Below, piece by piece: positions 1-38,469 of a DNA stretch of 64,000 nucleotides. Under the pieces are notes generated by a model. It saw only the letters and a program-made list of their open reading frames with translations, made no database searches and was not told the origin of the DNA. The translations under genes and the position numbers were made by a program. The stretch is from Octopus vulgaris (Eukaryota). Each line of letters starts with the position of its first letter. The stretch's first letter is position 1. Location of the stretch: the NCBI GenBank assembly GCA_951406725.2, contig OX597814.1, positions 195,858,001 to 195,922,000 of the forward strand, read 5' to 3'.

Positions 1-450
1 CTCACTTACTCACTTCCTAACTCACTCACACACTCACTCACTCACACACTCACTCACTCACACACTCACTCACTTACTCACTCACTCGCTCTCTCTCTCA
101 CTCACTCACTCACTTACTCACTCACTGACTCACTCACACACTTACTCACTCATACACTCACTCACTTACTCACTCACTCACTCACTCACTCATTCTCTCC
201 CTCCCTCACTCACTCACTTACTCACTCACTCACTCACTCACTCACTCACACACTCACTCTCTCCCTCACTCGCATACTCACTCACTCACTCACTCACTCA
301 CTCACTTCCTAACTCACTCACTCACTCTCTCACTCACTCACTTACACACCCACTCACTCATTCACTCATGTACCCACTCACCCACTCACCCACCCACTCA
401 CTCCCTCACTCACTCACTCACACACACACACGCACACACACACACACAAA
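1..450. repeat. (CACT)n / (CA)n microsatellite
   Basis: Continuous degenerate CACT tetramer ending in a CA run. Confidence 0.95.
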
Positions 451-921
451 CACTCACCAACACTATCTCGACCCTATTCTCAATCATTCTAAAGTATTTA
501 TCAAGACATCTATCAGTATCGATCTATTCATCAGGCCAACTTCAATATTATTATATTTCATTGTCAAGCAAGCAATCCACTTTTTTCTTCTTCAATTTAC
601 CAAATGGAAAACGTAGCGGTGTTTTAGTGAATTCATTTATTTGTTTAAATTTCTTAAACGACACTAAAAGTACTTGTCACCTATATTCCAAAACGGAAAC
701 GAAATGTCGTCAACACAATGCGACACTGATTTTGCAAACAATTTCCAATAATTACAGAGAAGTGAGTTAAAGGGAAGTAACACAAGTGGGCCGATGCTAT
801 GGATCAACGTACGAAGGTGGTGTAGGCAATATATACATACACACACATATGTGCGTGTGCGTGCGTGTGTGTGATGTGTGTGTATCTGTGTGTATACATA
901 CATATATACATACATACATAC

Positions 922-1090
922 ATAGGGAGAGTTTACGAAAAAAACAAAAGACGAAGACAGGTGGTGTACAAAACAGATTTATTAGTATAACGCTCAGGAA
1001 TAGAAAAAAGTCTTTTACGTTTCGAGCCTACGCTCGTCTACAGAAAGGGACACAGGAAAAACAAGGAGAGAAACGAGGAAAGAAAAAAAT
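922..1090 (-). mobile_element. Short non-autonomous element (Penelope pLTR-like) with variant hammerhead motif
   Basis: Homologous to 55745-55910 in opposite orientation. Minus strand 1012-1047 reads cttt-CTGTAGA-c-GAGC-gtag-GCTC-GAAA-cg-TA-aaag. Flanked by (TACA)n. Confidence 0.6.
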
Positions 1091-1351
1091 GTCTGTACAT
1101 ACATACATACATGCATACATACATACATACATACAAGCATAACGCAAACACCAGGCAATCCAAAATGGCAGGACCTTTGTGAATACTCATTCCTTGACTA
1201 GGTAGGCCTTTACATCATATACAATATATATATATATATATTATATGTATTTTTATATGTAATAATATCAGTTATCGGATTGGACACGATAGTGTAGTAC
1301 CGAACATCACTCCAGTCAGAGTAAGAACACAATATTCTTTTATTCTTTTAT

Positions 1352-1890
1352 TTGTTTCACTCATTTGACTGCATACTCAGCATCTCCCGGCCAGACAAGG
1401 TGACCAACACCGATGTCCTGACTTGTGCTAGCCTCCCTTCCACGTACACCTTGCTGAGACAACATCGACTACGCTGGCTAGGCCACGTTCACCGTGTGAA
1501 CGACGGCCGAATCCCAAAAGACATTTTCTACGGAGAACTCGCGACAGGACAGAGGAACAAGGGCCGCCCGCAGCTGAAGTACAAGGACGTGTGTAGGAAG
1601 GACATAAAGGCGCTCAACGTCGACATCAAATCCTGTGAGGACCTGGCAGCAGACCGCACTAGGTGGAAAAGCACACATCTCAAACAGCAACGGATCGGTG
1701 GGAGAAGCTGTCAGCAGCAGAAAAGCGAACCCGAAGTAAGGGGTCGACAGCCGACAGACCAGAATCCACAAACAGATGCGATCTATGCGACCGTCACTGT
1801 CATTCTCGCATTGGTCTCCATAGCCACAAGAGGCGCTGCTCAAGCCGAGCGGCCCAACCTAGACAATAAATGGACGGACGTGATGTCCAT
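1352..1890 (+). pseudogene. 3' fragment of RTE-clade LINE ORF (post-RT region plus C2H2 zinc finger), frameshifted
   Basis: LRWLGHVHRVNDGRIPKDIFYGELATGQRNKGRPQLKYKD in ORF 1352-1924; CDLCDRHCHSRIGLHSHKRRC in shifted frame 1663-1869. Confidence 0.85.
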
Positions 1891-1908
1891 GGGTAGCCAA
1901 TATATATA

Positions 1909-2156
1909 TTGGGTTGGTGCATAATTTTTGCGGCTTTTATTCAACAAATTTTATTCAACAATAAGATTGACAATATTTAACACAAACATATTTAAACGAA
2001 TAGTCTAAACGTTTGCCAAGCAAATGGGAAGCAATAATTGAATTAGATGGCGAATATGCTCCGGAATAATCATTAAAGATGTTTTTGTTACTTGTTATTG
2101 TTTTTGTTGAATAAAATTTATTGAAAAAAAACAGTAATAAGTATGCAGCAACCCAA
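1909..2156. mobile_element. Tc1/mariner-type MITE
   Basis: TIRs ttgggttggtgcata / tatgcagcaacccaa, extended imperfect inverted repeats inside, TA flanks. Confidence 0.75.
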
Positions 2157-2276
2157 TATATATATATATATATATATATATTGGACGAGCCCAAATATTT
2201 TAAAGGTGGTGCTCCAGCATGGCCGCAGTCAAATGACTGAAACAAGTAAAAGAATAAAAGAATAAAAGAATATATG

Positions 2277-2340
<64 letters not shown>

Positions 2341-2561
2341 TCAATATAGGGTGGCAAGGAAAATTTTGTAGAATTTTATTGCCACCAGCGGCCCAGTGGG
2401 AAAAAATTAAATAGTCATAGACCATTTTTAAGTTCAACATTAACAATTAAGGAACGGCCATAATAGGCCATTCACCCACTAGAAATAACAGCCAAAGCTT
2501 CTACCGCAAATAAAGATCAATTCCGTAAACAGGAGAAAATTAAAAAAACATTTACCCTGTA

Positions 2562-2668
2562 ATTTCTTGTACGGTATACCGTTTCATCTGCTGTTTAATG
2601 GTAAACTAACCTGATTAAATTAAATCAAGCCAATCTTCCATAAGCCCTCAGATTCTTCAGCAAGAAAT
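2562..2668 (-). ncRNA. Type I hammerhead ribozyme (array A left arm; also 3053-3159 and 3544-3650)
   Basis: Reverse complement of the motif at 4052-4158. Confidence 0.85.
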
Positions 2669-4051
2669 AGCTCAAGTCGGAACAGATATTTACACGAGGC
2701 GTACCTAACCCTGCCAAGGCAATATCTGACCTAAAATTTTCAAATCGTCGCACTCGCGCCAAATTTATCGGCAGCAAATAAATATCAGCCGTCGATTCCA
2801 TTACGGAGTTAACCAAAAAATTCATAATTAATCAATATAGGGTGGCAAGGAAAATTTTGTAGAATTTTATTGCCACCAGCGGCCCAGTGGGAAAAAATTA
2901 AATAGTCATAGACCATTTTTAAGTTCAACATTAACAATTAAGGAACGGCCATAATAGGCCATTCACCCACTAGAAATAACAGCCAAAGCTTCTACCGCAA
3001 ATAAAGATCAATTCCGTAAACAGGAGAAAATTAAAAAAACATTTACCCTGTAATTTCTTGTACGGTATACCGTTTCATCTGCTGTTTAATGGTAAACTAA
3101 CCTGATTAAATTAAATCAAGCCAATCTTCCATAAGCCCTCAGATTCTTCAGCAAGAAATAGCTCAAGTCGGAACAGATATTTACACGAGGCGTACCTAAC
3201 CCTGCCAAGGCAATATCTGACCTAAAATTTTCAAATCGTCGCACTCGCGCCAAATTTATCGGCAGCAAATAAATATCAGCCGTCGATTCCATTACGGAGT
3301 TAACCAAAAAATTCATAATTAATCAATATAGGGTGGCAAGGAAAATTTTGTAGAATTTTATTGCCACCAGCGGCCCAGTGGGAAAAAATTAAATAGTCAT
3401 AGACCATTTTTAAGTTCAACATTAACAATTAAGGAACGGCCATAATAGGCCATTCACCCACTAGAAATAACAGCCAAAGCTTCTACCGCAAATAAAGATC
3501 AATTCCGTAAACAGGAGAAAATTAAAAAAACATTTACCCTGTAATTTCTTGTACGGTATACCGTTTCATCTGCTGTTTAATGGTAAACTAACCTGATTAA
3601 ATTAAATCAAGCCAATCTTCCATAAGCCCTCAGATTCTTCAGCAAGAAATAGCTCAAGTCGGAACAGATATTTACACGAGGCGTGTAAATTTTCTCCTGT
3701 TTACGGAATTGATCTTTATTTGCGGTAGAAGCTTTGGCTGTTATTTCTAGTGGGTGAATGGCCTATTATGGCCGTTCCTTAATTGTTAATGTTGAACTTA
3801 AAAATGGTCTATGACTATTTAATTTTTTCCCACTGGGCCGCTGGTGGCAATAAAATTCTACAAAATTTTCCTTGCCACCCTATATTGATTAATTATGAAT
3901 TTTTTGGTTAACTCCGTAATGGAATCGACGGCTGATATTTATTTGCTGCCGATAAATTTGGCGCGAGTGCGACGATTTGAAAATTTTAGGTCAGATATTG
4001 CCTTGGCAGGGTTAGGTACGCCTCGTGTAAATATCTGTTCCGACTTGAGCT

Positions 4052-4158
4052 ATTTCTTGCTGAAGAATCTGAGGGCTTATGGAAGATTGGCTTGATTTAA
4101 TTTAATCAGGTTAGTTTACCATTAAACAGCAGATGAAACGGTATACCGTACAAGAAAT
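4052..4158 (+). ncRNA. Type I hammerhead ribozyme with extended stem II (first of 14 plus-strand copies, every ~491 bp)
   Basis: Stem I atttcttg/caagaaat; core CTGAAGA 4060-4066; stem II atctg/cagat; GAAA 4135-4138; palindromic stem III ACGGTATACCGT; predicted GUA cleavage after 4150. Confidence 0.9.
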
Positions 4159-7100
4159 TACAGGGTAAATGTTTTTTTAATTTTCTCCTGTTTACGGAAT
4201 TGATCTTTATTTGCGGTAGAAGCTTTGGCTGTTATTTCTAGTGGGTGAATGGCCTATTATGGCCGTTCCTTAATTGTTAATGTTGAACTTAAAAATGGTC
4301 TATGACTATTTAATTTTTTCCCACTGGGCCGCTGGTGGCAATAAAATTCTACAAAATTTTCCTTGCCACCCTATATTGATTAATTATGAATTTTTTGGTT
4401 AATTCCGTAATGGAATCGACGGCTGATATTTATTTGCTGCCGATAAATTTGGCGCGAGTGCGACGATTTGAAAATTTTAGGTCAGATATTGCCTTGGCAG
4501 GGTTAGGTACGCCTCGTGTAAATATCTGTTCCGACTTGAGCTATTTCTTGCTGAAGAATCTGAGGGCTTATGGAAGATTGGCTTGATTTAATTTAATCAG
4601 GTTAGTTTACCATTAAACAGCAGATGAAACGGTATACCGTACAAGAAATTACAGGGTAAATGTTTTTTTAATTTTCTCCTGTTTACGGAATTGATCTTTA
4701 TTTGCGGTAGAAGCTTTGGCTGTTATTTCTAGTGGGTGAATGGCCTATTATGGCCGTTCCTTAATTGTTAATGTTGAACTTAAAAATGGTCTATGACTAT
4801 TTAATTTTTTCCCACTGGGCCGCTGGTGGCAATAAAATTCTACAAAATTTTCCTTGCCACCCTATATTGATTAATTATGAATTTTTTGGTTAATTCCGTA
4901 ATGGAATCGACGGCTGATATTTATTTGCTGCCGATAAATTTGGCGCGAGTGCGACGATTTGAAAATTTTAGGTCAGATATTGCCTTGGCAGGGTTGGGTA
5001 CGCCTCGTGTAAATATCTGTTCCGACTTGAGCTATTTCTTGCTGAAGAATCTGAGGGCTTATGGAAGATTGGCTTGATTTAATTTAATCAGGTTAGTTTA
5101 CCATTAAACAGCAGATGAAACGGTATACCGTACAAGAAATTACAGGGTAAATGTTTTTTTAATTTTCTCCTGTTTACGGAATTGATCTTTATTTGCGGTA
5201 GAAGCTTTGGCTGTTATTTCTAGTGGGTGAATGGCCTATTATGGCCGTTCCTTAATTGTTAATGTTGAACTTAAAAATGGTCTATGACTATTTAATTTTT
5301 TCCCACTGGGCCGCTGGTGGCAATAAAATTCTACAAAATTTTCCTTGCCACCCTATATTGATTAATTATGAATTTTTTGGTTAATTCCGTAATGGAATCG
5401 ACGGCTGATATTTATTTGCTGCCGATAAATTTGGCGCGAGTGCGACGATTTGAAAATTTTAGGTCAGATATTGCCTTGGCAGGGTTAGGTACGCCTCGTG
5501 TAAATATCTGTTCCGACTTGAGCTATTTCTTGCTGAAGAATCTGAGGGCTTATGGAAGATTGGCTTGATTTAATTTAATCAGGTTAGTTTACCATTAAAC
5601 AGCAGATGGAAACGGTATACCGTACAAGAAATTACAGGGTAAATGTTTTTTTAATTTTCTCCTGTTTACGGAATTGATCTTTATTTGCGGTAGAAGCTTT
5701 GGCTGTTATTTCTAGTGGGTGAATGGCCTATTATGGCCGTTCCTTAATTGTTAATGTTGAACTTAAAAATGGTCTATGACTATTTAATTTTTTCCCACTG
5801 GGCCGCTGGTGGCAATAAAATTCTACAAAATTTTCCTTGCCACCCTATATTGATTAATTATGAATTTTTTGGTTAACTCCGTAATGGAATCGACGGCTGA
5901 TATTTATTTGCTGCCGATAAATTTGGCGCGAGTGCGACGATTTGAAAATTTTAGGTCAGATATTGCCTTGGCAGGGTTGGGTACGCCTCGTGTAAATATC
6001 TGTTCCGACTTGAGCTATTTCTTGCTGAAGAATCTGAGGGCTTATGGAAGATTGGCTTGATTTAATTTAATCAGGTTAGTTTACCATTAAACAGCAGATG
6101 AAACGGTATACCGTACAAGAAATTACAGGGTAAATGTTTTTTTAATTTTCTCCTGTTTACGGAATTGATCTTTATTTGCGGTAGAAGCTTTGGCTGTTAT
6201 TTCTAGTGGGTGAATGGCCTATTATGGCCGTTCCTTAATTGTTAATGTTGAACTTAAAAATGGTCTATGACTATTTAATTTTTTCCCACTGGGCCGCTGG
6301 TGGCAATAAAATTCTACAAAATTTTCCTTGCCACCCTATATTGATTAATTATGAATTTTTTGGTTAATTCCGTAATGGAATCGACGGCTGATATTTATTT
6401 GCTGCCGATAAATTTGGCGCGAGTGCGACGATTTGAAAATTTTAGGTCAGATATTGCCTTGGCAGGGTTGGGTACGCCTCGTGTAAATATCTGTTCCGAC
6501 TTGAGCTATTTCTTGCTGAAGAATCTGAGGGCTTATGGAAGATTGGCTTGATTTAATTTAATCAGGTTAGTTTACCATTAAACAGCAGATGAAACGGTAT
6601 ACCGTACAAGAAATTACAGGGTAAATGTTTTTTTAATTTTCTCCTGTTTACGGAATTGATCTTTATTTGCGGTAGAAGCTTTGGCTGTTATTTCTAGTGG
6701 GTGAATGGCCTATTATGGCCGTTCCTTAATTGTTAATGTTGAACTTAAAAATGGTCTATGACTATTTAATTTTTTCCCACTGGGCCGCTGGTGGCAATAA
6801 AATTCTACAAAATTTTCCTTGCCACCCTATATTGATTAATTATGAATTTTTTGGTTAATTCCGTAATGGAATCGACGGCTGATATTTATTTGCTGCCGAT
6901 AAATTTGGCGCGAGTGCGACGATTTGAAAATTTTAGGTCAGATATTGCCTTGGCAGGGTTGGGTACGCCTCGTGTAAATATCTGTTCCGACTTGAGCTAT
7001 TTCTTGCTGAAGAATCTGAGGGCTTATGGAAGATTGGCTTGATTTAATTTAATCAGGTTAGTTTACCATTAAACAGCAGATGAAACGGTATACCGTACAA

Positions 7101-10100
7101 GAAATTACAGGGTAAATGTTTTTTTAATTTTCTCCTGTTTACGGAATTGATCTTTATTTGCGGTAGAAGCTTTGGCTGTTATTTCTAGTGGGTGAATGGC
7201 CTATTATGGCCGTTCCTTAATTGTTAATGTTGAACTTAAAAATGGTCTATGACTATTTAATTTTTTCCCACTGGGCCGCTGGTGGCAATAAAATTCTACA
7301 AAATTTTCCTTGCCACCCTATATTGATTAATTATGAATTTTTTGGTTAATTCCGTAATGGAATCGACGGCTGATATTTATTTGCTGCCGATAAATTTGGC
7401 GCGAGTGCGACGATTTGAAAATTTTAGGTCAGATATTGCCTTGGCAGGGTTAGGGTACGCCTCGTGTAAATATCTGTTCCGACTTGAGCTATTTCTTGCT
7501 GAAGAATCTGAGGGCTTATGGAAGATTGGCTTGATTTAATTTAATCAGGTTAGTTTACCATTAAACAGCAGATGAAACGGTATACCGTACAAGAAATTAC
7601 AGGGTAAATGTTTTTTTAATTTTCTCCTGTTTACGGAATTGATCTTTATTTGCGGTAGAAGCTTTGGCTGTTATTTCTAGTGGGTGAATGGCCTATTATG
7701 GCCGTTCCTTAATTGTTAATGTTGAACTTAAAAATGGTCTATGACTATTTAATTTTTTCCCACTGGGCCGCTGGTGGCAATAAAATTCTACAAAATTTTC
7801 CTTGCCACCCTATATTGATTAATTATGAATTTTTTGGTTAACTCCGTAATGGAATCGACGGCTGATATTTATTTGCTGCCGATAAATTTGGCGCGAGTGC
7901 GACGATTTGAAAATTTTAGGTCAGATATTGCCTTGGCAGGGTTAGGTACGCCTCGTGTAAATATCTGTTCCGACTTGAGCTATTTCTTGCTGAAGAATCT
8001 GAGGGCTTATGGAAGATTGGCTTGATTTAATTTAATCAGGTTAGTTTACCATTAAACAGCAGATGAAACGGTATACCGTACAAGAAATTACAGGGTAAAT
8101 GTTTTTTTAATTTTCTCCTGTTTACGGAATTGATCTTTATTTGCGGTAGAAGCTTTGGCTGTTATTTCTAGTGGGTGAATGGCCTATTATGGCCGTTCCT
8201 TAATTGTTAATGTTGAACTTAAAAATGGTCTATGACTATTTAATTTTTTCCCACTGGGCCGCTGGTGGCAATAAAATTCTACAAAATTTTCCTTGCCACC
8301 CTATATTGATTAATTATGAATTTTTTGGTTAACTCCGTAATGGAATCGACGGCTGATATTTATTTGCTGCCGATAAATTTGGCGCGAGTGCGACGATTTG
8401 AAAATTTTAGGTCAGATATTGCCTTGGCAGGGTTAGGTACGCCTCGTGTAAATATCTGTTCCGACTTGAGCTATTTCTTGCTGAAGAATCTGAGGGCTTA
8501 TGGAAGATTGGCTTGATTTAATTTAATCAGGTTAGTTTACCATTAAACAGCAGATGAAACGGTATACCGTACAAGAAATTACAGGGTAAATGTTTTTTTA
8601 ATTTTCTCCTGTTTACGGAATTGATCTTTATTTGCGGTAGAAGCTTTGGCTGTTATTTCTAGTGGGTGAATGGCCTATTATGGCCGTTCCTTAATTGTTA
8701 ATGTTGAACTTAAAAATGGTCTATGACTATTTAATTTTTTCCCACTGGGCCGCTGGTGGCAATAAAATTCTACAAAATTTTCCTTGCCACCCTATATTGA
8801 TTAATTATGAATTTTTTGGTTAACTCCGTAATGGAATCGACGGCTGATATTTATTTGCTGCCGATAAATTTGGCGCGAGTGCGACGATTTGAAAATTTTA
8901 GGTCAGATATTGCCTTGGCAGGGTTAGGTACGCCTCGTGTAAATATCTGTTCCGACTTGAGCTATTTCTTGCTGAAGAATCTGAGGGCTTATGGAAGATT
9001 GGCTTGATTTAATTTAATCAGGTTAGTTTACCATTAAACAGCAGATGAAACGGTATACCGTACAAGAAATTACAGGGTAAATGTTTTTTTAATTTTTCTC
9101 CTGTTTACGGAATTGATCTTTATTTGCGGTAGAAGCTTTGGCTGTTATTTCTAGTGGGTGAATGGCCTATTATGGCCGTTCCTTAATTGTTAATGTTGAA
9201 CTTAAAAATGGTCTATGACTATTTAATTTTTTCCCACTGGGCCGCTGGTGGCAATAAAATTCTACAAAATTTTCCTTGCCACCCTATATTGATTAATTAT
9301 GAATTTTTTGGTTAATTCCGTAATGGAATCGACGGCTGATATTTATTTGCTGCCGATAAATTTGGCGCGAGTGCGACGATTTGAAAATTTTAGGTCAGAT
9401 ATTGCCTTGGCAGGGTTAGGTACGCCTCGTGTAAATATCTGTTCCGACTTGAGCTATTTCTTGCTGAAGAATCTGAGGGCTTATGGAAGATTGGCTTGAT
9501 TTAATTTAATCAGGTTAGTTTACCATTAAACAGCAGATGAAACGGTATACCGTACAAGAAATTACAGGGTAAATGTTTTTTTAATTTTCTCCTGTTTACG
9601 GAATTGATCTTTATTTGCGGTAGAAGCTTTGGCTGTTATTTCTAGTGGGTGAATGGCCTATTATGGCCGTTCCTTAATTGTTAATGTTGAACTTAAAAAT
9701 GGTCTATGACTATTTAATTTTTTCCCACTGGGCCGCTGGTGGCAATAAAATTCTACAAAATTTTCCTTGCCACCCTATATTGATTAATTATGAATTTTTT
9801 GGTTAACTCCGTAATGGAATCGACGGCTGATATTTATTTGCTGCCGATAAATTTGGCGCGAGTGCGACGATTTGAAAATTTTAGGTCAGATATTGCCTTG
9901 GCAGGGTTAGGTACGCCTCGTGTAAATATCTGTTCCGACTTGAGCTATTTCTTGCTGAAGAATCTGAGGGCTTATGGAAGATTGGCTTGATTTAATTTAA
10001 TCAGGTTAGTTTACCATTAAACAGCAGATGAAACGGTATACCGTACAAGAAATTACAGGGTAAATGTTTTTTTAATTTTCTCCTGTTTACGGAATTGATC

Positions 10101-10662
10101 TTTATTTGCGGTAGAAGCTTTGGCTGTTATTTCTAGTGGGTGAATGGCCTATTATGGCCGTTCCTTAATTGTTAATGTTGAACTTAAAAATGGTCTATGA
10201 CTATTTAATTTTTTCCCACTGGGCCGCTGGTGGCAATAAAATTCTACAAAATTTTCCTTGCCACCCTATATTGATTAATTATGAATTTTTTGGTTAACTC
10301 CGTAATGGAATCGACGGCTGATATTTATTTGCTGCCGATAAATTTGGCGCGAGTGCGACGATTTGAAAATTTTAGGTCAGATATTGCCTTGGCAGGGTTA
10401 GGTACGCCTCGTGTAAATATCTGTTCCGACTTGAGCTATTTCTTGCTGAAGAATCTGAGGGCTTATGGAAGATTGGCTTGATTTAATTTAATCAGGTTAG
10501 TTTACCATTAAACAGCAGATGAAACGGTATACCGTACAAGAAATTACAGGGTAAATGTTTTTTTAATTTTCTCCTGTTTACGGAATTGATCTTTATTTGC
10601 GGTAGAAGCTTTGGCTGTTATTTCTAGTGGGTGAATGGCCTATTATGGCCGTTCCTTAATTG

Positions 10663-10703
<41 letters not shown>

Positions 10704-10708
<5 letters not shown>

Positions 10709-10916
10709 TAATCCAAACATGAAAACACAAAGAGAAAACACAACAACGCGAGGACGTGGAACAAATATAGTATCATTGGACGCTCAGGAAGGAAGGGAAG
10801 ATGCAGGGTTTAACGTTTCGAGCGGAGCTCTTCGTCAGAAACATAGGAAAAGGAAAGATCCAGAGAAGGGAAGACGGAGGAAAAAAAATCGCCAACGGTA
10901 AACGCGCGGTCACATT

Positions 10917-10920
<4 letters not shown>
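10704..10920 (-). mobile_element. Short Penelope pLTR-like fragment in (TA)n with minimal hammerhead
   Basis: Minus strand 10808-10842: gttt-CTGACGA-a-GAGC-tcc-GCTC-GAAA-cg-TT-aaac; (TA)n on both sides. Confidence 0.75.
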
Positions 10921-10964
<44 letters not shown>

Positions 10965-11186
10965 TCAATATAGGGTGGCAAAAGAAATTTTGTAGAATTC
11001 TTTTGCCACCAGCGGCCTAGTGGGAAAAAATTTAAATAGTCATAAACCATTTTTAAGTTCAACATCACAATCAAGGAACGGCCATAATAGGCCATTCACC
11101 CACTAGAAATAACAGCCAAAAGCTTTAACCGCAAAATAACGTCAATTCCGTAAACCAGGAGAAAATTAAAAAACATTTACCCTGTA

Positions 11187-11293
11187 ATTTCTTAGACGAT
11201 GCACCGTTTCATCTACTGTTTAATGGAAAACTAACCTGATTAAATTAAATCAAGCCAATCTACCATAGGCCCTTAGATTCATCAGTAAGAAAT
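11187..11293 (-). ncRNA. Type I hammerhead ribozyme, subfamily B left arm
   Basis: Reverse complement of the 11879-11985 motif. Confidence 0.85.
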
Positions 11294-11878
11294 AGCCAAG
11301 CCGGAACAGATATATTTCACGAGGCATTCTCGTTGCTACCTCGTCAATATCTGACCTAAAATTTTCAAATCGTCGCACTCGCACCAAATTTATCGGCAGC
11401 AAATAAATATAAGCCGCCGATTCCATTACGGAATTAACCAGAAAATTCATAATTAATCAATATAGGGTGGCAAAAGAAATTTTGTAGAATTCTTTTGCCA
11501 CCAGCGGCCTAGTGGGAAAAAATTTAAATAGTCATTGACGTTATTTTGCGGTTAAAGCTTTTGGCTGTTATTTCTAGTGGGTGAATGGCCTATTATGGCC
11601 GTTCCTTGATTGTGATGTTGAACTTAAAAATGGTTTATGACTATTTAAATTTTTTCCCACTAGGCCGCTGGTGGCAAAAGAATTCTACAAAATTTCTTTT
11701 GCCACCCTATATTGATTAATTATGAATTTTCTGGTTAATTCCGTAATGGAATAGGCGGCTTATATTTATTTGCTGCCGATAAATTTGGCGCGAGTGCGAC
11801 GATTTGAAAATTTTAGGTCAGATATTGACGAGGTAGCAACGAGAATGCCTCGTGAAAAATATCTGTTCCGGCTTGGCT

Positions 11879-11985
11879 ATTTCTTACTGATGAATCTAAG
11901 GGCCTGTGGTAGATTGGCTTGATTTAATTTAATCAGGTTAGTTTTCCATTAAACAGTAGATGAAACGGTGCATCGTCTAAGAAAT
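11879..11985 (+). ncRNA. Type I hammerhead ribozyme, subfamily B right arm
   Basis: atttctta-CTGATGA-atcta...tagat-GAAA-cggtgcatcg-TC-taagaaat; canonical CUGAUGA core and GUC site. Confidence 0.9.
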
Positions 11986-12313
11986 TACAGGGTAAATGTT
12001 TTTTAATTTTCTCCTGGTTTACGGAATTGACGTTATTTTGCGGTTAAAGCTTTTGGCTGTTATTTCTAGTGGGTGAATGGCCTATTATGGCCGTTCCTTG
12101 ATTGTGATATATATATATATATATATATAAATGCAAGTTGTATTATCTTTCACGGACGAATACTGGCAAAGGAAGGGTCGTTCGTTCTGTATCAAAGCAT
12201 TTCGTTATCACTGGTGCCGGCAGAACTTCTAATCAGGAAATGGATGGTGGGAAACTTTTAGTTGTGCGTGCGGACGAATACTAATCTCAAATTGAAGTGT
12301 AGCACAAATATAT

Positions 12314-12525
12314 AAGGCAGCGATCCGGCAGAACCGTTAGTATGCCGGGCAAAATGCTTCGCTGCATTTCGTCCGTTTCTACGTTCTGAGTTCAAATTTC
12401 GCTTAGGTCGACTTTGCCTTTCATCTTTTCGACATCGACAAAATAAGCACCAACTGAGTAGTGGGGCCGATGTAATTGATTCATCCCACTCCTAAAATTG
12501 CTAGCCTTGTGCTAAAATTCGAAAT
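12314..12525 (+). mobile_element. tRNA-derived SINE family 1, diverged
   Basis: aaggcagcgatccggcagaaccgttag...gttctgagttcaaatt...gactttgcctttcatc matches many copies in the window. Confidence 0.8.
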
Positions 12526-13199
12526 TAATCAATTAACTAATCAATTAACTAATCAATTCCAGTTCATAACTAATGAGTATTTTGTTGACTTTGCATTTAT
12601 CAGAGACTGAACCGATCTCCATAACCAGTGTGATTTAAGGAAGTATATCCTGGTATGTTTCTACGACAACGAGCAGATTCTGCCGTAACAACTCTTTTAG
12701 ATTATATAAAATATTGAAATTTATTCGCTCTTACCTTGGTCTTTTATTCTTGCAAACCACCCAATCTAAAAATCTAAACAAATTAAGGTACAAACATTGA
12801 TTGTCATTCACTGTCAAAAGAAGTAACGCTGTAGTGTCTTTCACTCTCGATGAAGATGGCGATCAAAAAGAAATCTTTTTTTTTTCTTTTTAAGCAGTTT
12901 ATATATTCACTTCATGTATTTACGATCATCTTGACAGTTTCTCTGGTTTGATAATACGTTCAGACACTTAACTACTTGGCAAGCTTTGTCATTGGAGGCT
13001 CAAGGGAATTGTGATGACGTTGAAGTTGGTTTCGTAAAATTGATAATATAAAACCCCCATTAGTTTAAAATATTTATTATTGGAATCACCAGAGGAAAAC
13101 CAAAAAGCAAATAAAACAACTAGACCTAATAGTATAGAGGTAATAAAAAAAGCACTTCTTTTTTTAAGAATGCTTTTAACGTCTCTTCGTCCTTCGGAA

Positions 13200-13600
13200 T
13201 GACAAATAAATATTTAAGCATTGAGAAATGTTCTGATTGTCAGTGATTCTACTGATTGCTGGGATTAATGAAAAGTTCGGAAGTAAAGCTTGTAAAGAAC
13301 CACCACTCATGCTGGTATACTTATTGGTCAACGGTGACCGGAGAAAGATCTATGTTAGATTTTTGTAGAAAACATTTAGCAAGGAAAAGCGACGGTGTTG
13401 AAGAGATTCAACTCTCTGGTCTCATCCAGAGAGTTTGCAACCAAGTGAATGTGGATAATTTCCAGTGACACTTGGCCTGGTGGTACTATCGGGGAAGCAT
13501 TGCATTTTTGAGACACACAACCGGTGATATTCGAAATGCACGTAGAGCACTCGGGACAAGTCATTCCTGCTGTCATGCTGATCCTCTATTTGAAGGATTC
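13200..13600 (-). pseudogene. Possible decayed retroviral-type (Gypsy/Ginger-like) integrase fragment
   Basis: CPEC followed by PIVPPGQVSLEIIHIHL resembles the zinc-finger/core boundary of rve integrases; heavily disrupted. Confidence 0.35.
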
Positions 13601-13635
13601 TTAGAAGTAGCATTCCTTTTTTGAAACATCTTTCT

Positions 13636-14042
<407 letters not shown>

Positions 14043-14062
<20 letters not shown>

Positions 14063-14215
14063 TTAGGAGAAATGAGGTACTCAGAAATCTGGATAGTTTT
14101 ATATTTACAGATATTTATTAGTATGTCACATGTTTTTATAAATCATATATTTGCGCTTGCGTCCACTCCAGTGAAGTCGTCAGACTGAACTTTTGCAGGA
14201 ATATATACATACATA

Positions 14216-14304
<89 letters not shown>

Positions 14305-14458
14305 ATTAGGAGAAATGAGGTACTCAGAAATCTGGATAGTTTTATATTTACAGATATTTATTAGTATGTCACATGTTTTTATAAATCATATATTTGCGCT
14401 TGCGTCCACTCCAGTGAAGTCGTCAGACTGAACTTTTGCAGGAATATATACATACATA

Positions 14459-14541
<83 letters not shown>
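14043..14541. repeat. Tandem duplication of a ~140-bp core flanked by (TG)n and (CA)n/(TA)n
   Basis: Core ttaggagaaatgagg...ttttgcagga is identical at ~14063 and ~14306. Confidence 0.85.
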
Positions 14542-14545
<4 letters not shown>

Positions 14546-14650
14546 GGGGAGTTGTAGCTGTTTGTGTGTATAGCATTTTCTTGATATACCGAGGAAGCGT
14601 GTCTAGTGTATACTGTAGTAGCGCCAGTTAAGTTTTAAGTATTAAGGGTC

Positions 14651-15235
14651 AAGGCGGCGAGCCGGTAGAAACGTTAGCACGTCGGGCGAAATGCTTAGCG
14701 GTATTTCGTCTGCCGCTACGTTCTGAGTTCAAATTTCGCCGAGGTCGACTTTGCCTTTCATCCTTTCGGGGTCGATTAAATAAGTACCAGTCACGCACTG
14801 GGGTCGATATAATCGAATTAATCCTTTTGTCTGTCCTTGTTTGTCCTCTCTGTGTTTAGCCCCTTGTGGGTAGTAAAGAAATAGAAATAGGAATTTCGTC
14901 TGCCGTTACGTTCTGCGTTCAAATTCCTTTCGGGTTCGATAAATTAAGTAACAGTGGCGTACTGAGATCGATTCAATCGACTGGCCCCTTCCCTCCAAAT
15001 TTTGGACCATGTGCCTAAAGTAGAATAGATTATATTAAGGCGGCGAGCTGGCAGAATCGTTAGCATGACGGGCGAAATTCTTAGCGGTATTTCGTCTGCC
15101 GTTAGGATTGGATTTCGAATTTCCCTATCAGCCTTTGGCGGTCGATAAAATTAGTACCAGTTACGTACTGGGGTCGATCTAATCGACTGTCCCCCTCCCC
15201 CAAAATTTGAGGCCTAGTGCTTCCAATAGAAAGGA
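14651..15235 (+). mobile_element. Cluster of SINE family 1 copies (dimeric plus single)
   Basis: aaggcggcgagc(c/t)ggcagaa heads at 14651 and 15037; gcctttcatcctttcggggtcgat core. Confidence 0.85.
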
Positions 15236-17089
15236 TGTATTCAAGTTGAAAACATGTGACACACTGACATTCACATTTATTATATTAGATATGTTTAGTT
15301 TTGGAGAAACTTTATTTCAATTCAAGTGTATTTAATTTATATTTATGTGTGTGTATTAAACAAAGCAAAAAATAAAACAAAAATGATGGTGTTCAGTATG
15401 TTAGCGACAAGAATTTCTGTCAAAGACATATGGTTAAACAATGTTAGGCACCATCTTCCTCTTTCTCTCACACACCCACTCTTTCTCCCTCTTTTACTAT
15501 TACTCCCACTACCACCATCAACACTACTACTTTTAATAAAACATCAACTCACCCTAAATTTCTTTGTCTCTCTCTCCCTCTCTTTTTCTTTCTCTCTCCT
15601 TCACTGTCTGTTTTCGCCACCGCCCTCACCGTCTCTATGCGTACTATTACTCTCACCCCATCATGAGGAATAGTAAGAGTGTCATTGAATAGTGAGAGAG
15701 GAGGTCTAAGTATTTTACACTGACGCAGAAATTAGTGTTCGCATTTATTATATTAGATAATAGCTCCATATGGTTTAATGTTTTGTGGGCGCGTATGATG
15801 AACCCATCTCATTAAATATATATATATGTGTGTGTGTCTTTTTCACTTGTTTATACCATATAAGTCCGTCTCAACTCAATTGGCCTGGGGTACTATAGAG
15901 AAGGTCTTCCTTAACTAACAGTATTGTGTAGTATGTGGGTTGTTCCCAAAAGGGTGATTTGTTTTCACAAATATTACTATTGTTCGGGATTATGGTCTGT
16001 GAAATTCCTCTTCGCTCTCTTCATGAATTGTAAAACTCCGATGACTGTTTTATATTATGTCGGTATTCATACACGACACCATGTTCATTTTTATAATAGC
16101 ACAAACCACAACGACAATGCCAGCTGCAATGACAACGTTCCGCCATGATCCAATAAGTGAGTCTCATTGTTGTCACATCAACTGCTGGAAATAGTAGCAA
16201 GTTTTTTTCTTAAATTATGCGTTACTGTTTAAAATAAAGCAGATGTTTATGAGTGGATAACTTCGATTATACGAGTGCTCAATCAAGGCTCAGGGGGAAA
16301 CATGAACAATAGCAGTAACTCGACCATAGACACAGGCATAAACACAGATATTGACATAGATGCAATTGTACCCACACTACTAAACGTTCGCTCACACACA
16401 CACTCACAATCTGGTACACACATAGCTGTTACACAGACAGATACAAAGACACACACATGAACACATGCCAGAAACACAGACTCACATACCAGTGATACTA
16501 CACATACCATACACAACAACATAAATACACATGCGTTGCTATAGAATTACCTGAACACATATGCACATACAATAGCCATGACAAGACATATTGACGGCGT
16601 TTAGCAAATCACAAACAATACAAAACACCTGCGGCCATTTTCAGAAACACCACAGATAAGAAGGTCACAGAAATGATAATAGAAAAATATTTTTCGAAAC
16701 TAAACAAGTCATAATGGTGTGAGCATGACTGCTGATTGCTGACTGCTTATTTTTCTTTCCATCGGCACATGTGCCACTCACAGGTTTATAAGGTTAAACA
16801 ATAGCAACGACATTCTAGAAATAGCAACAAAATGTGGTTTGTAGTAGATTCCGCCATTTTTCGCTAACCTCGTCTGGTATGAATTATGATTGAAAACAAA
16901 AAGAAAGGTAAGGTCACGGATGGAAAGTGCTCAAATAATGATTACCGAGGGCTAAACAACATCAGTCAATATACCAGCAATAGCTACATTCTACTATACA
17001 ATCAATATACCAGTCGTACCTTACAGTCGATATTCCTGTCAAAGTCATATTCTACCACACAATAAATATAGCAATGATAGCTACATTCT

Positions 17090-17656
17090 TTTCTACTCTA
17101 GGCATAAGGCCCGAAATTTTTGGGGGGAGGAGGCCAGTCGATTAGATTAACCGGTACTTAATTTATCGACCCCGAAAGGATGGAAGGCAAAGTCGACCTC
17201 GGCGGAATTTGAACTCAGAACGTAACAGCAGACGAAATACCTATTTCTTTACTACCCACAAGGGGCTAAACATAGAGAGGACAATCAAGGACAGACAAAC
17301 GGATTAAGTCGATTATATCGACCCCAGTGCGTAACTGGTACTTATTTAATTGACCACGAAATGATGAAAGGCAAAGTCGACTTCGGCGGAATTTGAACTC
17401 AGAACGTAGCGGCAGACGAAATACCTATTTCTTTATTACCCACAAGGGGCTAAACACAGAGGGGACAAACAAGGACAGACATAGGTATTAAGTCGATTAC
17501 ATCGACCCCAGTGCGTAACTGGTACTTAATTTATCGACCCCGAAAGGATGAAAGGCAAAGTTGACCTCGGCGGAATTTGAACTCAGAACGTAGCGGCAGA
17601 CGAAATACCGCTAAGCATTTCGCCCGGCGTGCTAACGTCTCTGCCAGCTCGCCGCC
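17090..17656 (-). mobile_element. SINE family 1, internally multimerised
   Basis: Three repeats of the atcgaccccgaaaggatgaaaggcaaagtcgacc module; head gctcgccgcct at the right end. Confidence 0.85.
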
Positions 17657-17977
17657 TCCATTGAGGATATTGTATATTATAGCTGACACTAACTATACAA
17701 GTCGTAGCTTTATTCTTCCCCAGTCAATATTCCAGTCAGAGCTATCGTCTCCCTTGCAGTCACTGTAGTAAATATTGTGACTTTTCACATTATAATCAAT
17801 TTGTTATTAGACCGTTAGATTACCTCAGATTTTTCTTCTACTATTTCCAAGTCGATCGTATTCTAGAGGCCAAAGATTTCTCAAGCTTGGTGACCATCAC
17901 CACTGAGTTGCAGCTCAACGACAAAAGTTTACTCAAAGCTGTGATGCTGTAATGTTTTCTAAATGTGCAGCAATGCA

Positions 17978-18200
17978 TGCGCGTGGCCTAGTGGTTAAGG
18001 TGTTGGACTCATGATCGTAAGATTGTTGTTCGATCACTGGACGCGTTGTGTTCTTGGGCAAAGCACTTCATTTCACGTGTTTCCACTCTACTTAGCTGGC
18101 AAAAATGAGGAATCCTGCGACGGATAGGCGTCCCGTCCAGGTGGGGAATATATGCGCCTTGGAAAGCGGCTCTATGAACCTATATGACTCGGTAAGGATT
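17978..18200 (+). mobile_element. tRNA-derived SINE, diverged
   Basis: A-box-like tggcctagtggtta and B-box-like gttcgatc, then ttcttgggcaaagcacttcatttcac; related copies at ~22690 and ~32530. Confidence 0.6.
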
Positions 18201-18759
18201 TTCATCTTGTCTACCCAACGCTGGGGCGACGGCAGTCTAATAACATCTTTATTACGTAGACTAAGTATTCACTTCATAGAAGTAAATCGTAAATCGAAAC
18301 GCACGATGGAGCTTCTGCGCGAACTCCAGAGCTGTTACAAATACTATTTTATTGTTGGAATGCAATTCATCATAGGCCACCAAACAACGCTGATCGGCAG
18401 ACTAATGCCTGAGGATCGCATCAAGTAGTTCCTAGCGACAGAAGCCTGAACTACAACGGGCTTGTCCCACAGATCAGCTGTAACTAAATGCTAGGATCAG
18501 ATATATAATGCTAAAAATCAACATTAAAACGCATGAAAACTAAACGAAAATGCTCTAGTTTCGCCCTGTTGCCTTAAAACGCCCCAGACACAAAGAATCT
18601 GGAGATGTGAACCTGCACACCGAGCACCAACTTAGCAACACCAGAGCAGAGCGCGCCGAGGTGACTACTTGAGTAAACATCGCATCTGGTTCCAAATCTG
18701 TCAACACTTCGAGGATGAATATGATTTGAAGGACACCGATTCCCTGATAGCCGCAAGAG

Positions 18760-19542
18760 CCAACCATAACGGAATATCTATGCAACTTCTACACATGCAT
18801 AGGGGAATTAAGGAACAGCGACTATGTCAATCTTCAGAGAACATTTTGTTCTGAAGCTATCATTAATTTAATAACCTTTCTTATATTCACGAGTGAATGC
18901 GGCGGCCGAAACAGTTGTCAGTCTTTAAATAGCTTACAAGGACGTAAGTTTACGAGTGGATTTTCACTCTTTAGGAATGGTTACATGTGGCTTGAGGACC
19001 AGCTTCGTTCATGCCAAATGCTGACTTCCCAAATGAATGAAAACATCATGAAAATTCAAGAATTGACCTTGGAGGAACGTCACCGAACAATTGACGATCT
19101 TGTTTGATATGACCGGTGATTCTTGGAGCTCATGTGAATGTATTTTGAGCAAGGAATTGCGAGTTAAAAGAGTTGTAGCAAAATTTGTGTTTCGCTTGCT
19201 GATGGAAGATCAAAAGCAGTCACGACTAAATGCATGTCGTGAGCTGAAAGAACAGCTGGAAGTGGATCCGGAATACATTTTCAGAGGTCATCGTTGGTGA
19301 TGAAAGCTGGTGTTACGGGCTATGCAGATGTGGAAGAGGTGAAGAAAAGAAACGGCGGAGGCATTCAAAGGCATTACTTCGTAAAATTTTCAACACTGCT
19401 TCCAACAGTGGAAAATGCGTCTGTGCCGATGTATTGCTTCGAATGAAGAATACTTAGAAGGCGATAAAAGACCAAACATGTAAAACCAAATGAATAAAAT
19501 AATATTGCTAACACCTGGTTTCTTTTGGGTACACACTCGTGT
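18760..19542 (+). pseudogene. Decayed, internally deleted mariner transposase
   Basis: KRVVAKFVFRLLMEDQKQSRLNACREL; ggtgatgaaagctgg (GDESW); C-terminal FQQW..RCIAS..EYLEGDK. Confidence 0.75.
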
Positions 19543-19545
19543 ATG

Positions 19546-19592
<47 letters not shown>

Positions 19593-19601
<9 letters not shown>

Positions 19602-20202
19602 GTGAATTGAAGAAATGGAGCTGAACGAAGATTGAACAGAAATCGTTTTATTTCATTCTACACGTGTTTCGAAAGGCACAATTTACCAAAATCCGATTGA
19701 ATAATGAGACCATATTGTGTCTTTCTCTTCAGGAAGAAATAGGAAATCCGTTGGAAAAAACAAAAACAGAACAGAGGCGGAGCAAAACAAATCGAACTAG
19801 GCTCCTAAGAGCCCATGGCCAAACTCTTGGCCATGGGCTCTTAGGAGCCTAGTTCGATTTGTTTTGCTCCGCCTCTGTTCTTTTTTTGTTTTTTCCAACG
19901 GATTTCCTATTTCTTCCTGAAGAGAAAGACACAATATGGTCTCATTATTCAATCGGATTTTGGTAAATTGTGCCTTTCGAAACACGTGTAGAATGAAATA
20001 AAACGATTTCTGTTCAATCTTCGTTCAGCTCCATTTCTTCAATTCACCAATAATATTAAAATTCAATTATCCGCACCAACGCACGGTTGCAACACCATAT
20101 GGTTGTACCTCCAACCGTGCTGTCTTCTGCTGTGATTTTTGCTACCAAGGTATCGGTTAAACTTTTGATTCATCTGCTACAAGATTATTCATCTTTCTAT
20201 TT

Positions 20203-21807: not shown

Positions 21808-23059
21808 TATATATATATATATATATTGCTAAATTTTTCTTGAGAATATTTCTTAGTGGTAAGACCATAGTGGATCTATTTCTAGCATAAGGGTGTCCAC
21901 ATAGTGATCCATCCATATACATTGTATTGCAGCTAACTGTTGTAGCTATGTTCTATATTCTATCCAATAGTTAACATACGTATCATATTAATATTCAACA
22001 GGAAGAAAGCAAATATATGTCATTACGATAACCGCCCTAAGCAAAATAATAACAATCGCAGCTACGTTCCGCCTTACAGCTACTGTAACAGCTTGCACAA
22101 ATTTATATATAGGTGTACGAGTGTATGTGTATGTGTGTGTATTTCAAGATCATAGTTATGACGTTATTGTTACAGGTCTACTAGAACACGTGACAAAATA
22201 CTGTTCAGGTTTCAAATCCCCGCTGAGCTCGATTTTTTTTTCTTTCTTTTATCTTTCTGATATCAATAGAATAACTCTCGGTCATGTTTTGAAATAGCTT
22301 CGATCCACAGTTCTTCCCCGCATTACACACAATGCGCCGTTTTGCTTTAATCAATGTAAGGAATTTAATATTGAATCGAACAGACAACTGTGAGAATGAT
22401 TGCGGTAAAAGAGGCCATCCTGCAGTGTCGTGACAATTACACAGTTTCAATTCTAGGTTGAGCTAAGTTCATTTGACTTACGTTATTATTTCTGCCCTAC
22501 GGGAGATTATAAACGTGACAAGCCTTACTTAGTATTAACGTGCTCTGGCACGGCTTAAGGCGTGATAAAGAAGACAAAGAGAGCATTTAAACAAATGAAA
22601 TAACTCGTAACTCCCAAATAATTGCAACTTTATTACTACTCATGAGAGACCTCAATGCAATGTAAGTCTGGTACCCGTGAGTAGTGAGGGCGAGTGGCCT
22701 GGTGGTTAGGGTGTTGCACACACGAATACGAGATCTGGGTTCGATTCTCGCACCGGGCGGAGATTTTTGTTCTTAGGCAAATCACATCGTGTTAGGCTGT
22801 TCTACGATCATGATCATTTCAATATTTGTCGTCTGACACATCGTGCACCTATAAAGGCAAATGTCAATTTGATGGAGGGAGTGAACTAATGTACAGTACA
22901 TGCATTTATTTGATCGTGATAAACAAATCATCTGTGCAATTATAGCAACACGAAAATTGGGTAATTCTCATTCTTTTGGTACTATTTGAGAGTTAAGCGA
23001 AAAGAGAAAAAATGAAAAAAACATAAGACATGCGCTCTAAACTAGTGAATCAGTATATA

Positions 23060-23473
23060 TTTCCTTACTGCCCACAAGCGGCTAAACATAGAGGGGACAA
23101 ACAAGGACAGGCAAAGGGATTAAGTCAATTACATCGACACCAGTGCGTAAATGGTACTTATTTTATCGACCCCGAAAGGATAAAAGGCAAAGTCGACCTC
23201 GGCAGAATTTGAACTCGGAACGTAACGACAGACGAAATACCTATTTCTTTACTACCCACAAGGGGCTAAAGACAGAGGGAACAAACAAGGATAGACAATT
23301 GGATTAAGTCGATTATATCGATCCCAGTGCGTAACTGGTACTTATTTAATCGACCCCGAAAGGATGAAAGGCAAAGTCGACCACGGCGGAATTTGAACTC
23401 AGAACGTAACGGCAGACGAAACACCGCTAAGCATTTCGCCCGGCGCGCTAACGTTTCTGCCAGCTCGTCGCCT
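23060..23473 (-). mobile_element. SINE family 1 (dimeric)
   Basis: Matches other copies. Confidence 0.85.
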
Positions 23474-30026: not shown

Positions 30027-31368
30027 AGGCGGTGAGCTGGCAGAAACGTTAGCACGCCGGGCAAAATGCATAGCGGTATTTCGTTTTCCTTTACGTTCTG
30101 CGTTCAAATTCCGCCGAGGTCGAATTTGCCTTTCATCCTTTCGGAGTCCATAAATTAAGTACCAGTTACGCACTGGGGTTGATGTAATCGACTTAATCCC
30201 TTTGTCCTTGTTTGCCCCCTCTATGTTTAGCCCCTTGTGGGCAATAAAGAAATAAGAAATGCCCCCATGTTAGATCTCACTTTCTAGCCGTTACAGCTTA
30301 CGATGGTCTCTCGCAGCAACTTCTGTATCTATCAATGGCCGATATGCATCTGAAAATAAGTCTTAGATTTCTATTAGGACTGGAAACTACTTCAGCTTTG
30401 ACAGCATTTTGACGCTTTGCAATGTACAAATGTGGTTCCTACTGGAGTCCTTAAGGCGGCGAGCTGGCAGAAACGTTAGCACGACGGGCGAAATGCTTAG
30501 CGTTATTTCGACTGCCATTACGTTCTGAGTTCAAATTCCGCCGAGGTCGACTTTGCCTTTCATCCTTTCGGGGTCGATTAAATGAGTACCAGTTACGCTC
30601 TGGGGTCGGTATAATCGAGTTAATCCGTTTGTCGGTTCTTGTTTTTTCCCCTCTGTGTTTAGCTCCTTGTGGGCAATAAAGAAATATATAGGAGATTTCA
30701 TGAGATCTTAGGATCGTGCCGCTGCCATACACACACGCATCCACGCACGCACACGTACACACATTTAGACTGCATACGAAAGGAGGCTATTTAAATGATT
30801 GCCTAACGCCACTATCTAAAATCTGGCCATTATCATCTCTTTATTTCCCTTCTCGTTCTACAACGACCTCTACTCTCCTAAACAGTCCTAGCTGTATTCA
30901 GCATCTCTCCATCCTGACATATGCACTTTATCGATATCTTCCTCTCTTCTCATGCCTATTTCTTTACTACCCACAAGGGGCTAAGCACAGAAAGGACAAA
31001 CAAGGACAGACAAACGGATTAAGTCGATTACATCGACCCCCAGTGCGTAACTGGTACTTAATTTATCGACCCCGAAAGGATGAAAGGCAAAGTCAGCCTC
31101 GGCGGAATTTGAACTTGGAACATAATGACAGATGAAATACTTATTTCTTTTACTACACACAAGGGGCTAAGCACAGAGGGGGACAAACGAGGACAGACAA
31201 ACGGATTAAGTCGATTACATCGACCCCCAGTGCGTAACTGGTATTTATTTTATCGACCCCGAAAGGATGAAAGGCAAAGTCGACCTCGGCAGAATTTGCA
31301 CTCAGAACGTAACGGCTGACGAAATACTGCTAAGCATTTCGCCCGGCGTGCTAACAATTCTGCCAGCT
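30027..31368. mobile_element. Three SINE family 1 copies (30027-30255 +, 30453-30685 +, 30958-31368 -)
   Basis: Head and core motifs as above. Confidence 0.85.
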
Positions 31369-37524: not shown

Positions 37525-37940
37525 AAGGTGGCGAGCTGGCAGAACCGTTAGTACGCCGGGAGAAATGCTTAGCAGTATTTCGTCTGCCGCTACGTTCTGA
37601 GTTCAAATTCCGCCGAGGTCGACTTTGCCTTTCATCCTTTCGGGGTCGATTAAATAAGTACCAGTTACGCACTGGGGTCGATATAATCGACTTAATCCGT
37701 TTGTCTACCCTTGTTTGTCCTCTCTGTGTGTAGCCCCTTGTGGGTAGTAAAGAAATAGGTATTTCGTCTGCCGCTACTTTCTAAGTTCAAATTCCGCCGA
37801 GGCTGACTTTGCCTTTCATCCTTTCGGGGTCGATTAAATAAGTACCAGTAACGCACTGGGGTCGATATAATCGACTTAATCCGTTTTCTGTCCTTGTTAG
37901 TCCGCTTTGTGTGTAGGCCCTTGTGGGCAGTAAAGAAATA
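37525..37940 (+). mobile_element. SINE family 1 dimer inserted in hAT transposase
   Basis: Target-site duplication aaactttataaaagagt on both sides. Confidence 0.9.
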
Positions 37941-38469
37941 GAAAACTTTATAAAAGAGTGCATGATGGAAACAGCAAATGACTTGTTTTCCTGAAAAAGC
38001 TAACATATTTGGCTGTATCAGCCTTTCAACAAGTTCAGTTGTGCGGAGAATAGAAGAACTTGGGGAGAATATACAGTTACAAATACATGAGAAAGCTTAG
38101 AAATGTTTGTGGTATTCTGTTGCAATAGATGATTCTACTGATCCCTCTAGTACGTCACAATGTCTTGTCTTAATTACAATTGTGAGATTATAGAAGAAAT
38201 GGCATACGTTTGCAGTATACATCGAACAAAAACTGGAGAAATATTTTTATAGAGGCGCAGAAAATTTTGCAAAACTATAACGTTCAGTGGAAGCAGCTTC
38301 AGTGTATTACAGTTGATGGAGGTAAAAACATGGCAGGAGTGAGGAAGGATTTTGTAGGGCAGATCCAGACCAAGTTGGAGGAGCTTCAACTTCCGAAAGC
38401 ACTGTTTATACACTGCATTATACATCAGCAAGCACTCTGACGAAAATACTTAGATATTTCTTGCGTATT

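Follow-up and report, generated by a model that had tools for sequence, protein, structure and literature searches.

The window, by which we mean the whole stretch of DNA analysed here, comprises 64,000 nt of the Octopus vulgaris genome (GCA_951406725.2, OX597814.1:195,858,001-195,922,000, forward strand) and contains two arrays, A and B, of a single repeat with a 491-bp period. Positions within the repeat unit (u) are numbered from a predicted hammerhead cleavage site, with window position 4150 as u0, and two recurrent outer ends are designated S1 (near u131) and S2 (near u237). Array A begins against a (TA)n tract at 2270..2337 with a minus-strand arm of 2.7 units (2336..3684) whose outer 3' end lies at S2 (u234) and whose inner end lies at u359. 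An inversion junction of three bases foreign to both arms (3685..3687) leads into a plus-strand arm of 14.2 units (3688..10667), which starts at u29 and has its outer 3' end at S1 (u131), where a second (TA)n tract begins (10666..10704). Array B, set between (TA)n tracts at 10921..10959 and 12107..12129, is much shorter, with a minus arm of 1.2 units (10957..11535; outer end at S2, u238 in B numbering; inner end u152) and a plus arm of 1.2 units (11534..12108; inner end u49; outer end at S1, u131) that overlap by 2 bases at the inner junction. These coordinates bear out most of what a first-pass annotation had proposed for the two arrays: a head-to-head polarity with the minus arm before the plus arm, four outer ends that all lie in (TA)n and are all distinct from the cleavage site, a right end common to both arrays, and inner inversion points that differ. 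The common left end it had also proposed stands as far as the site is concerned, S2 in both arrays, while the exact positions differ by some 3-4 nt.

Arrays A and B are independent insertions. The first-pass annotation had named an old segmental duplication as the alternative, and this is ruled out by unrelated outer flanks, which have nothing in common at E<=1e-10, the sole flank match between A and B being the spacer that they share. The units of the two arrays are 89.5-92% identical to each other, and array B units find 99% matches at other genomic loci. Across its 8.3 kb, array A carries no singleton substitutions; it does show unit-level single-base indels, and it is a mosaic at u253 and u355, where an A-private allele and a family allele occur in all four combinations. 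The spacer holds an unrelated 216-bp dispersed repeat (10705..10920, minus strand) with a motif that by eye resembles a minimal hammerhead. This repeat has 370 candidates in the genome, with (TA)n on the left in 15 of 19 homologues and on the right in 14 of 19, and is probably another Penelope-type passenger. Elsewhere in the window, an open frame at 1325-1924 (plus strand) resembles, to our reading, the C-terminal region of an RTE-type LINE protein, microsatellites enclose a duplicated segment of 243 bp (14006-14529), and a SINE-like repeat occurs in several tandem copies of 184-187 bp (17148-17609, 23058-23425, 30957-31328 and 37575-37941).

Each 491-bp unit contains one hammerhead motif, consisting of a 4-bp P1, a conserved core, a P2 with a long structured loop and a short palindromic P3. 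With our own descriptor, type I hammerheads are predicted at 4056..4154 (plus strand) in array A, with predicted cleavage after 4150, and at 11883..11981 (plus strand) for subfamily B, with predicted cleavage after 11977. Compensatory changes favour these predictions: among 336 motif copies in the fetched loci, both partners of a P1 pair differ between the two subfamilies, A and B, and in 12 copies both strands of P2 have changed. Searches with Rfam models gave no hammerhead in 1-20000 (E<=0.1) or 10500-12150 (E<=10), a miss probably due to the long P2 loop; what they hit was simple-repeat noise. The unit folds more stably than its shuffles (z -4.9). Folding predictions for the circular unit and for the hammerhead region alike set other pairings in competition with the active P3 and favour a P3 self-duplex, and thus cleavage may need a dimer. 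Apart from one frame that enters the left end from the flank, the arrays contain no ORF of at least 120 aa; an ORF with reverse transcriptase (RT) and GIY-YIG domains is absent from them, and there is no Penelope-like protein match within the window. The family is dispersed, with 1288 and 911 genome candidates, ends at S1 and S2 in (TA)n and no LTR. Sequencing runs of three organisms contain the unit, and contigs from two presumed-RNA runs cover it and run round it, contigs that would look the same whether the molecule was circular or tandem, RNA or DNA. Judged by its sequence, this is a real and young family of non-LTR retrozymes, with a predicted ribozyme and with insertions that bear a Penelope-type footprint.

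Another non-coding family, whose type I hammerhead motif likewise has a long loop, also occurs head-to-head in (TA)n (L117, L179-L208; 2444 candidates). In a query-biased sample, its ends lie 36 and 136 nt after the predicted cleavage site, enclosing about 100 nt. Its L117 representative shows no detectable relationship to the 491-bp unit, their alignment scoring 90-91 against shuffles of up to 110.

The architecture of arrays A and B recurs throughout the genome. We fetched all other loci with listed positions, 78 in number, of which searches with the A and B units had each recovered 39. Fifty-nine were two-armed, every one of them minus-then-plus, and 19 were one-armed; 128 of 137 outer 3' ends fell at u128-136 (S1) or u228-244 (S2), and (TA)n flanked both sides of 56 of the 59 two-armed loci, where it would mask any target-site duplication. 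A locus was scorable if both outer ends fell in the S1 class (u100-140) or the S2 class (u225-246), which left out L033 and L034 (one duplicated locus and the sole true duplicate pair), L049, L081 and L096. Every one of the 54 scorable loci had one S1 and one S2 end, with no S1/S1 or S2/S2 combination (p 1e-16 for pairing versus independent choice). The left-right order of the two ends is split 27:27, and the occurrence of S2 on the left in both A and B is chance.

Because these 78 loci had been selected by similarity, a second sample was drawn from exact junctions of S1 or S2 with (TA)n on one contig (C1), similarity not being a selection criterion. Genome-wide, such junctions number 695 raw matches for S1 and 1233 for S2, the latter count inflated by double listing. 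On contig C1, 56 S1 ends and 82 distinct S2 ends formed 32 head-to-head neighbours within 10 kb, a set that includes arrays A and B, and all 32 were S1/S2. A third sample of 20 further stretches, 18 of them at unpaired ends, yielded 11 new insertions, again all S1/S2; the remainder comprised two unscorable, six one-armed, one already counted and one without the unit. Pooled over the three samples, 97 of 97 scorable insertions have one end of each class. Several loci classed as one-armed (L060, L090) have, by eye, a second arm of 10-16 bases that ends in the other class.

Thus the polarity, the fixed ends and the (TA)n flanks that the first-pass annotation proposed to check across other arrays hold genome-wide and are not random. 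Its two preferred AT-rich priming sites were rightly seen as two fixed sites; they are not independent of each other, as each is used once per insertion. Nor does AT-richness alone account for their selection, as 128 of 137 outer ends fall at the two sites: 35 unit positions pass an AT-word filter, and the homology of S1 and S2 to (TA)n amounts to only 2-5 bases. For these two reasons the choice of sites likely depends on protein and structure. In the predicted fold, where pairing probabilities around the two sites are modest, a small loop finishes at S1, and S2 follows a long hairpin and falls within an AU-rich stretch or loop that is unpaired. Many of the flanks of L031-L108 have other repeats in common beside the same (TA)n tracts, which suggests that such tracts collect several insertions.

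The segment between the two sites (u132-237; for one unit, 4282..4387, plus strand) measures about 106 nt and is the equivalent of the "tail" of Penelope-like elements. A search for an intact element with RT and GIY-YIG domains and the same target, as the first-pass annotation had suggested, was productive: a GIY-YIG family search and two protein searches recovered three autonomous Penelope-like families that end in (TA)n, young families in which the GIY-YIG domain is C-terminal. One encodes a 781-aa ORF with a GIY-YIG match and an RVT_1 match just under the cut-off. This ORF and that of a 775-aa family carry a CX4CxxC motif before the nuclease, a motif assigned to Neptune and Nematis (and Naiad) in the part of the literature available to us (PMC8557442). 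In the 775-aa family the tail (27 nt; 21 loci examined) is present on exactly one arm in 8 of 8 head-to-head insertions; the same holds for 3 of 3 in the 781-aa family (tail about 39 nt) and for 11 of 11 in the third, 753-aa family (tail about 47 nt; 11 of the listed pairs fetched), so that the one-of-each end rule applies in 22 of 22 pooled cases. Each of these tails is shorter than that of the retrozyme. Among the loci compared (the best of 6136-30319 candidates), no sequence was common to the unit and the autonomous loci beyond stray or nested unit fragments. Two observations concern the families themselves. All 76 scored copies of the 775-aa family (L229-L278), some of them in 4.27-kb head-to-tail tandems, have 100% amino acid identity over the query, indicating very recent activity. 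In the 781-aa family (L159-L174), the RT-endonuclease frame is preceded by a second open frame, as long as 479 codons, for which no convincing Pfam match was found.

In regard to mechanism, priming from both strands of a cut (TA)n tract, as first proposed from the two arrays, is borne out in its polarity, fixed ends and target, and the autonomous elements follow the same rule; there is good support for twin priming by Penelope-like machinery. Each insertion likely had a single RNA template. A circular template is probable and, together with rolling-circle copying, is inferred from the homogeneity of the arrays only. As a whole, we hold it somewhat more probable than all other readings together that each array is one insertion of the 491-base unit, made by a Penelope-like enzyme that nicks both (TA)n strands and starts at S1 and at S2 on the same, probably circular, RNA.

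The properties of the arms bear on this reading and on its rivals. Among the 54 scorable loci, arm lengths are uncorrelated (rho -0.18, p 0.19), the longer arm being the S1 arm in 26 and the S2 arm in 28, and both arms exceed one unit in 28. Such independence argues against a fold-back, or template switch, in which priming occurs once and the new cDNA is itself copied into the second arm by self-priming. This idea has a precedent in the self-priming from palindromes at inverted junctions proposed for rotifer Penelope, as far as the available text sets it out (PMC3846280), and near-symmetry is seen at 5 of 57 junctions against 2.4 expected, two of the five lying within the unit's own hairpin. 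Yet 52 of the 57 are asymmetric, a fold-back arm cannot become longer than the first arm, as either arm does here by up to several units, and a fixed second end 106 nt away is left unexplained; we therefore consider it very improbable. The argument from arm length is weakened by one locus (L085, G000:C18:59.816-59.822 Mb), in which a block of four variant units is repeated in the long arm, implying that some arrays grew after insertion or from a multimer. This block, together with the indels and mosaic sites of array A, could also be read as assembly noise or later unequal exchange, in keeping with the idea that the arrays are assembly artefacts or satellite DNA inverted and amplified by recombination. 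That idea seems to us scarcely credible, less so than any other considered here, because two fixed ends, one polarity and one target recur in two subfamilies at over 100 loci spread over many contigs, because three protein-coding families obey the same rule with different tail lengths, and because the unit is present in the runs of three organisms. The mosaic sites and the L085 block may themselves reflect later exchange, assembly polishing or multimeric templates.

The last of these possibilities touches on what kind of RNA Penelope-like twin priming would use. A linear multimeric transcript, uncut or partly cut, has in its favour the mosaic of unit types in array A, the L085 repeat and the behaviour of a related enzyme in vitro, whose main substrate was unprocessed multi-copy RNA in the available account (PMC11167929). 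It would also explain why 5' ends gather just after the cleavage site, where a cut 5' end would place them: with a shifted query that avoids query-edge bias, 34 of 172 fell in u1-40 and 8 in the preceding 40 nt (p 7e-5), the dip before u1 being itself non-significant (8 versus 14 under a flat expectation, p 0.12). Besides a cut 5' end, this pile-up could come from RT stalling, either where the RNA was ligated or at the P1 helix. A linear monomer fits a few short insertions (L220, L223). End-to-end jumping between linear monomers is disfavoured by the cleavage-site junctions within arms, which are intact: 312 of 326 match the motif, and the other 14 mostly have single-base changes. Against the multimer, locus-private alleles occur in every unit of both arms (4+4 units in L065, 3+3 in L105) and call for a bottleneck of a single unit followed by a multi-unit product, both of which a monomer circle would give directly. 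Long arrays are very uniform (singleton divergence 0-0.8%), and none of 65 minor variants, most of which probably arose after insertion, is repeated at the same lap of the other arm. In L046 and L056, moreover, both 5' ends lie near the cleavage site after unequal numbers of laps. A linear multimer thus appears unlikely, though it is the strongest of the rivals. If an asymmetric dimer gripped two separate RNAs, using S1 on one and S2 on the other, neither RT would need to displace cDNA made by its partner 106 nt further on. Transcripts from one source locus would also share alleles, and in 15 of 49 insertions the distance between the two arms is not below the mean distance to other loci. However, 51 rare alleles (22 loci) are fixed in both arms and none in one arm only, despite several subfamilies in the genome, and strict one-of-each pairing would require an extra assumption. 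Two RNAs are accordingly improbable, more so than a linear multimer.

For twin priming on one circular RNA, we envisage the following course. Transcripts of an array would self-cleave into monomers, some of which would be ligated into circles. A dimer of the RT-endonuclease would hold one RNA around the S1-S2 segment and offer one site to each nicked strand. Both RTs would then travel in the same direction round the RNA, with strand displacement and independent numbers of laps, often halting immediately 3' of the cleavage site. Finally, end-joining of the two cDNA 3' ends, through short microhomology or inserted bases, would give the head-to-head junction, and one-armed copies would arise if one priming fails or stays very short. 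The inner junctions are compatible with such joining: where inserts are lacking, 20 of 38 have microhomology of at least 2 nt, compared with 17% at random, and 20 of 58 junctions score as carrying inserts, a number that reference mismatch has inflated (array B was scored -9 and overlaps by 2). More broadly, we see an even chance that the tail is not optional at all, and that in every two-strand insertion RTs start before and after the tail on one RNA, chasing each other round when that RNA is a small retrozyme circle. If this is true, one mechanism would account for the tandem pseudo-LTRs (pLTRs) of Penelope-like elements, their inverted arms and their tail at one end only, and would be how animal ribozyme circles re-enter the genome.

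A young family with hundreds of insertions and a strict one-of-each rule, which three autonomous families also follow, supplies a countable constraint, namely two coupled primings, likely on one RNA, and the coupled-priming reading predicts that in vitro each molecule will carry a heterotypic pair of starts and that a circular template will be copied for more than one lap. The arrangement has a familiar counterpart in LINE-1 twin priming, which also gives a minus arm followed by a plus arm, both 3' ends facing outward, and microhomology at the inner junction. In LINE-1, the first primer anneals at the poly(A) end, the position of the second priming varies and there is hardly any overlap between the arms, whereas the octopus family has two fixed internal sites and arms whose overlap spans whole units.

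As an element class, the family resembles the metazoan non-LTR retrozymes in its non-coding tandem units of a few hundred bases and low GC content, so far as these are characterised in the available portions of two reports (PMC7229834; bioRxiv 10.64898/2026.07.22.740005), and in its dispersed multimers with one type I hammerhead, here predicted, per unit (available part of PMC7229834). A circRNA template and a Penelope-like helper have been put forward for retrozymes, and in the accessible text both the helper and the route of the animal elements stand as proposals (PMC7229834; bioRxiv 10.64898/2026.07.22.740005); phylogeny also links retrozymes to pLTRs (bioRxiv 10.64898/2026.07.22.740005, available part). 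The unit of 491 bp is longer than the 170-400 nt given in one of these sources (PMC7229834, available part) and lies within the 51-972 bp given in the other (bioRxiv 10.64898/2026.07.22.740005, available part), and its long P2 loop is unlike the published metazoan retrozymes as far as the first describes them. The octopus family is further set apart by its two-armed head-to-head insertions in (TA)n and their fixed pair of end points: the main text of PMC7229834 nowhere uses the word "inverted", and no such structure is described for retrozymes in the available part of bioRxiv 10.64898/2026.07.22.740005. A published count of strict pairing, or a two-armed retrozyme structure, was likewise not found in the open literature outside supplements, which may hold structure counts.

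It is the Penelope-like elements that the insertions themselves resemble, both in an inverted, 5'-truncated head-to-head arm and in two internal 3' end points that bound a tail. The differences are that the retrozyme lacks an ORF, has a tail of about 106 nt and builds arms of many units. Endonuclease-bearing Penelope-like elements have been described with an inverted 5'-truncated copy and a 30-40-bp tail that is called optional, with no pairing count in the available parts of these reports (PMC8557442, PMC3846280, PMC2377424), and the origin of their tandem and inverted insertions is named as an open question in the accessible portion of one of them (PMC8557442). The closest biochemical parallel, within the available part of PMC11167929, is Poseidon of the green anole, which in vitro nicks and extends both strands of an AT-rich target, uses two internal RT starts bounding the tail with either start on either strand, is predicted to act as a dimer, and does not need ribozyme cleavage in the assay. 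Poseidon starts in an AC-rich stem-loop, whereas the octopus ends lie in AU-rich stretches predicted to be unpaired, and the same portion of that source models Poseidon with a linear multi-copy RNA and does not report coupling of the two starts in each event. The element class is known, and the parts of this architecture are each in print qualitatively; the informative part is the strict one-of-each pairing, which the octopus retrozyme has in common with three autonomous Penelope-like families.
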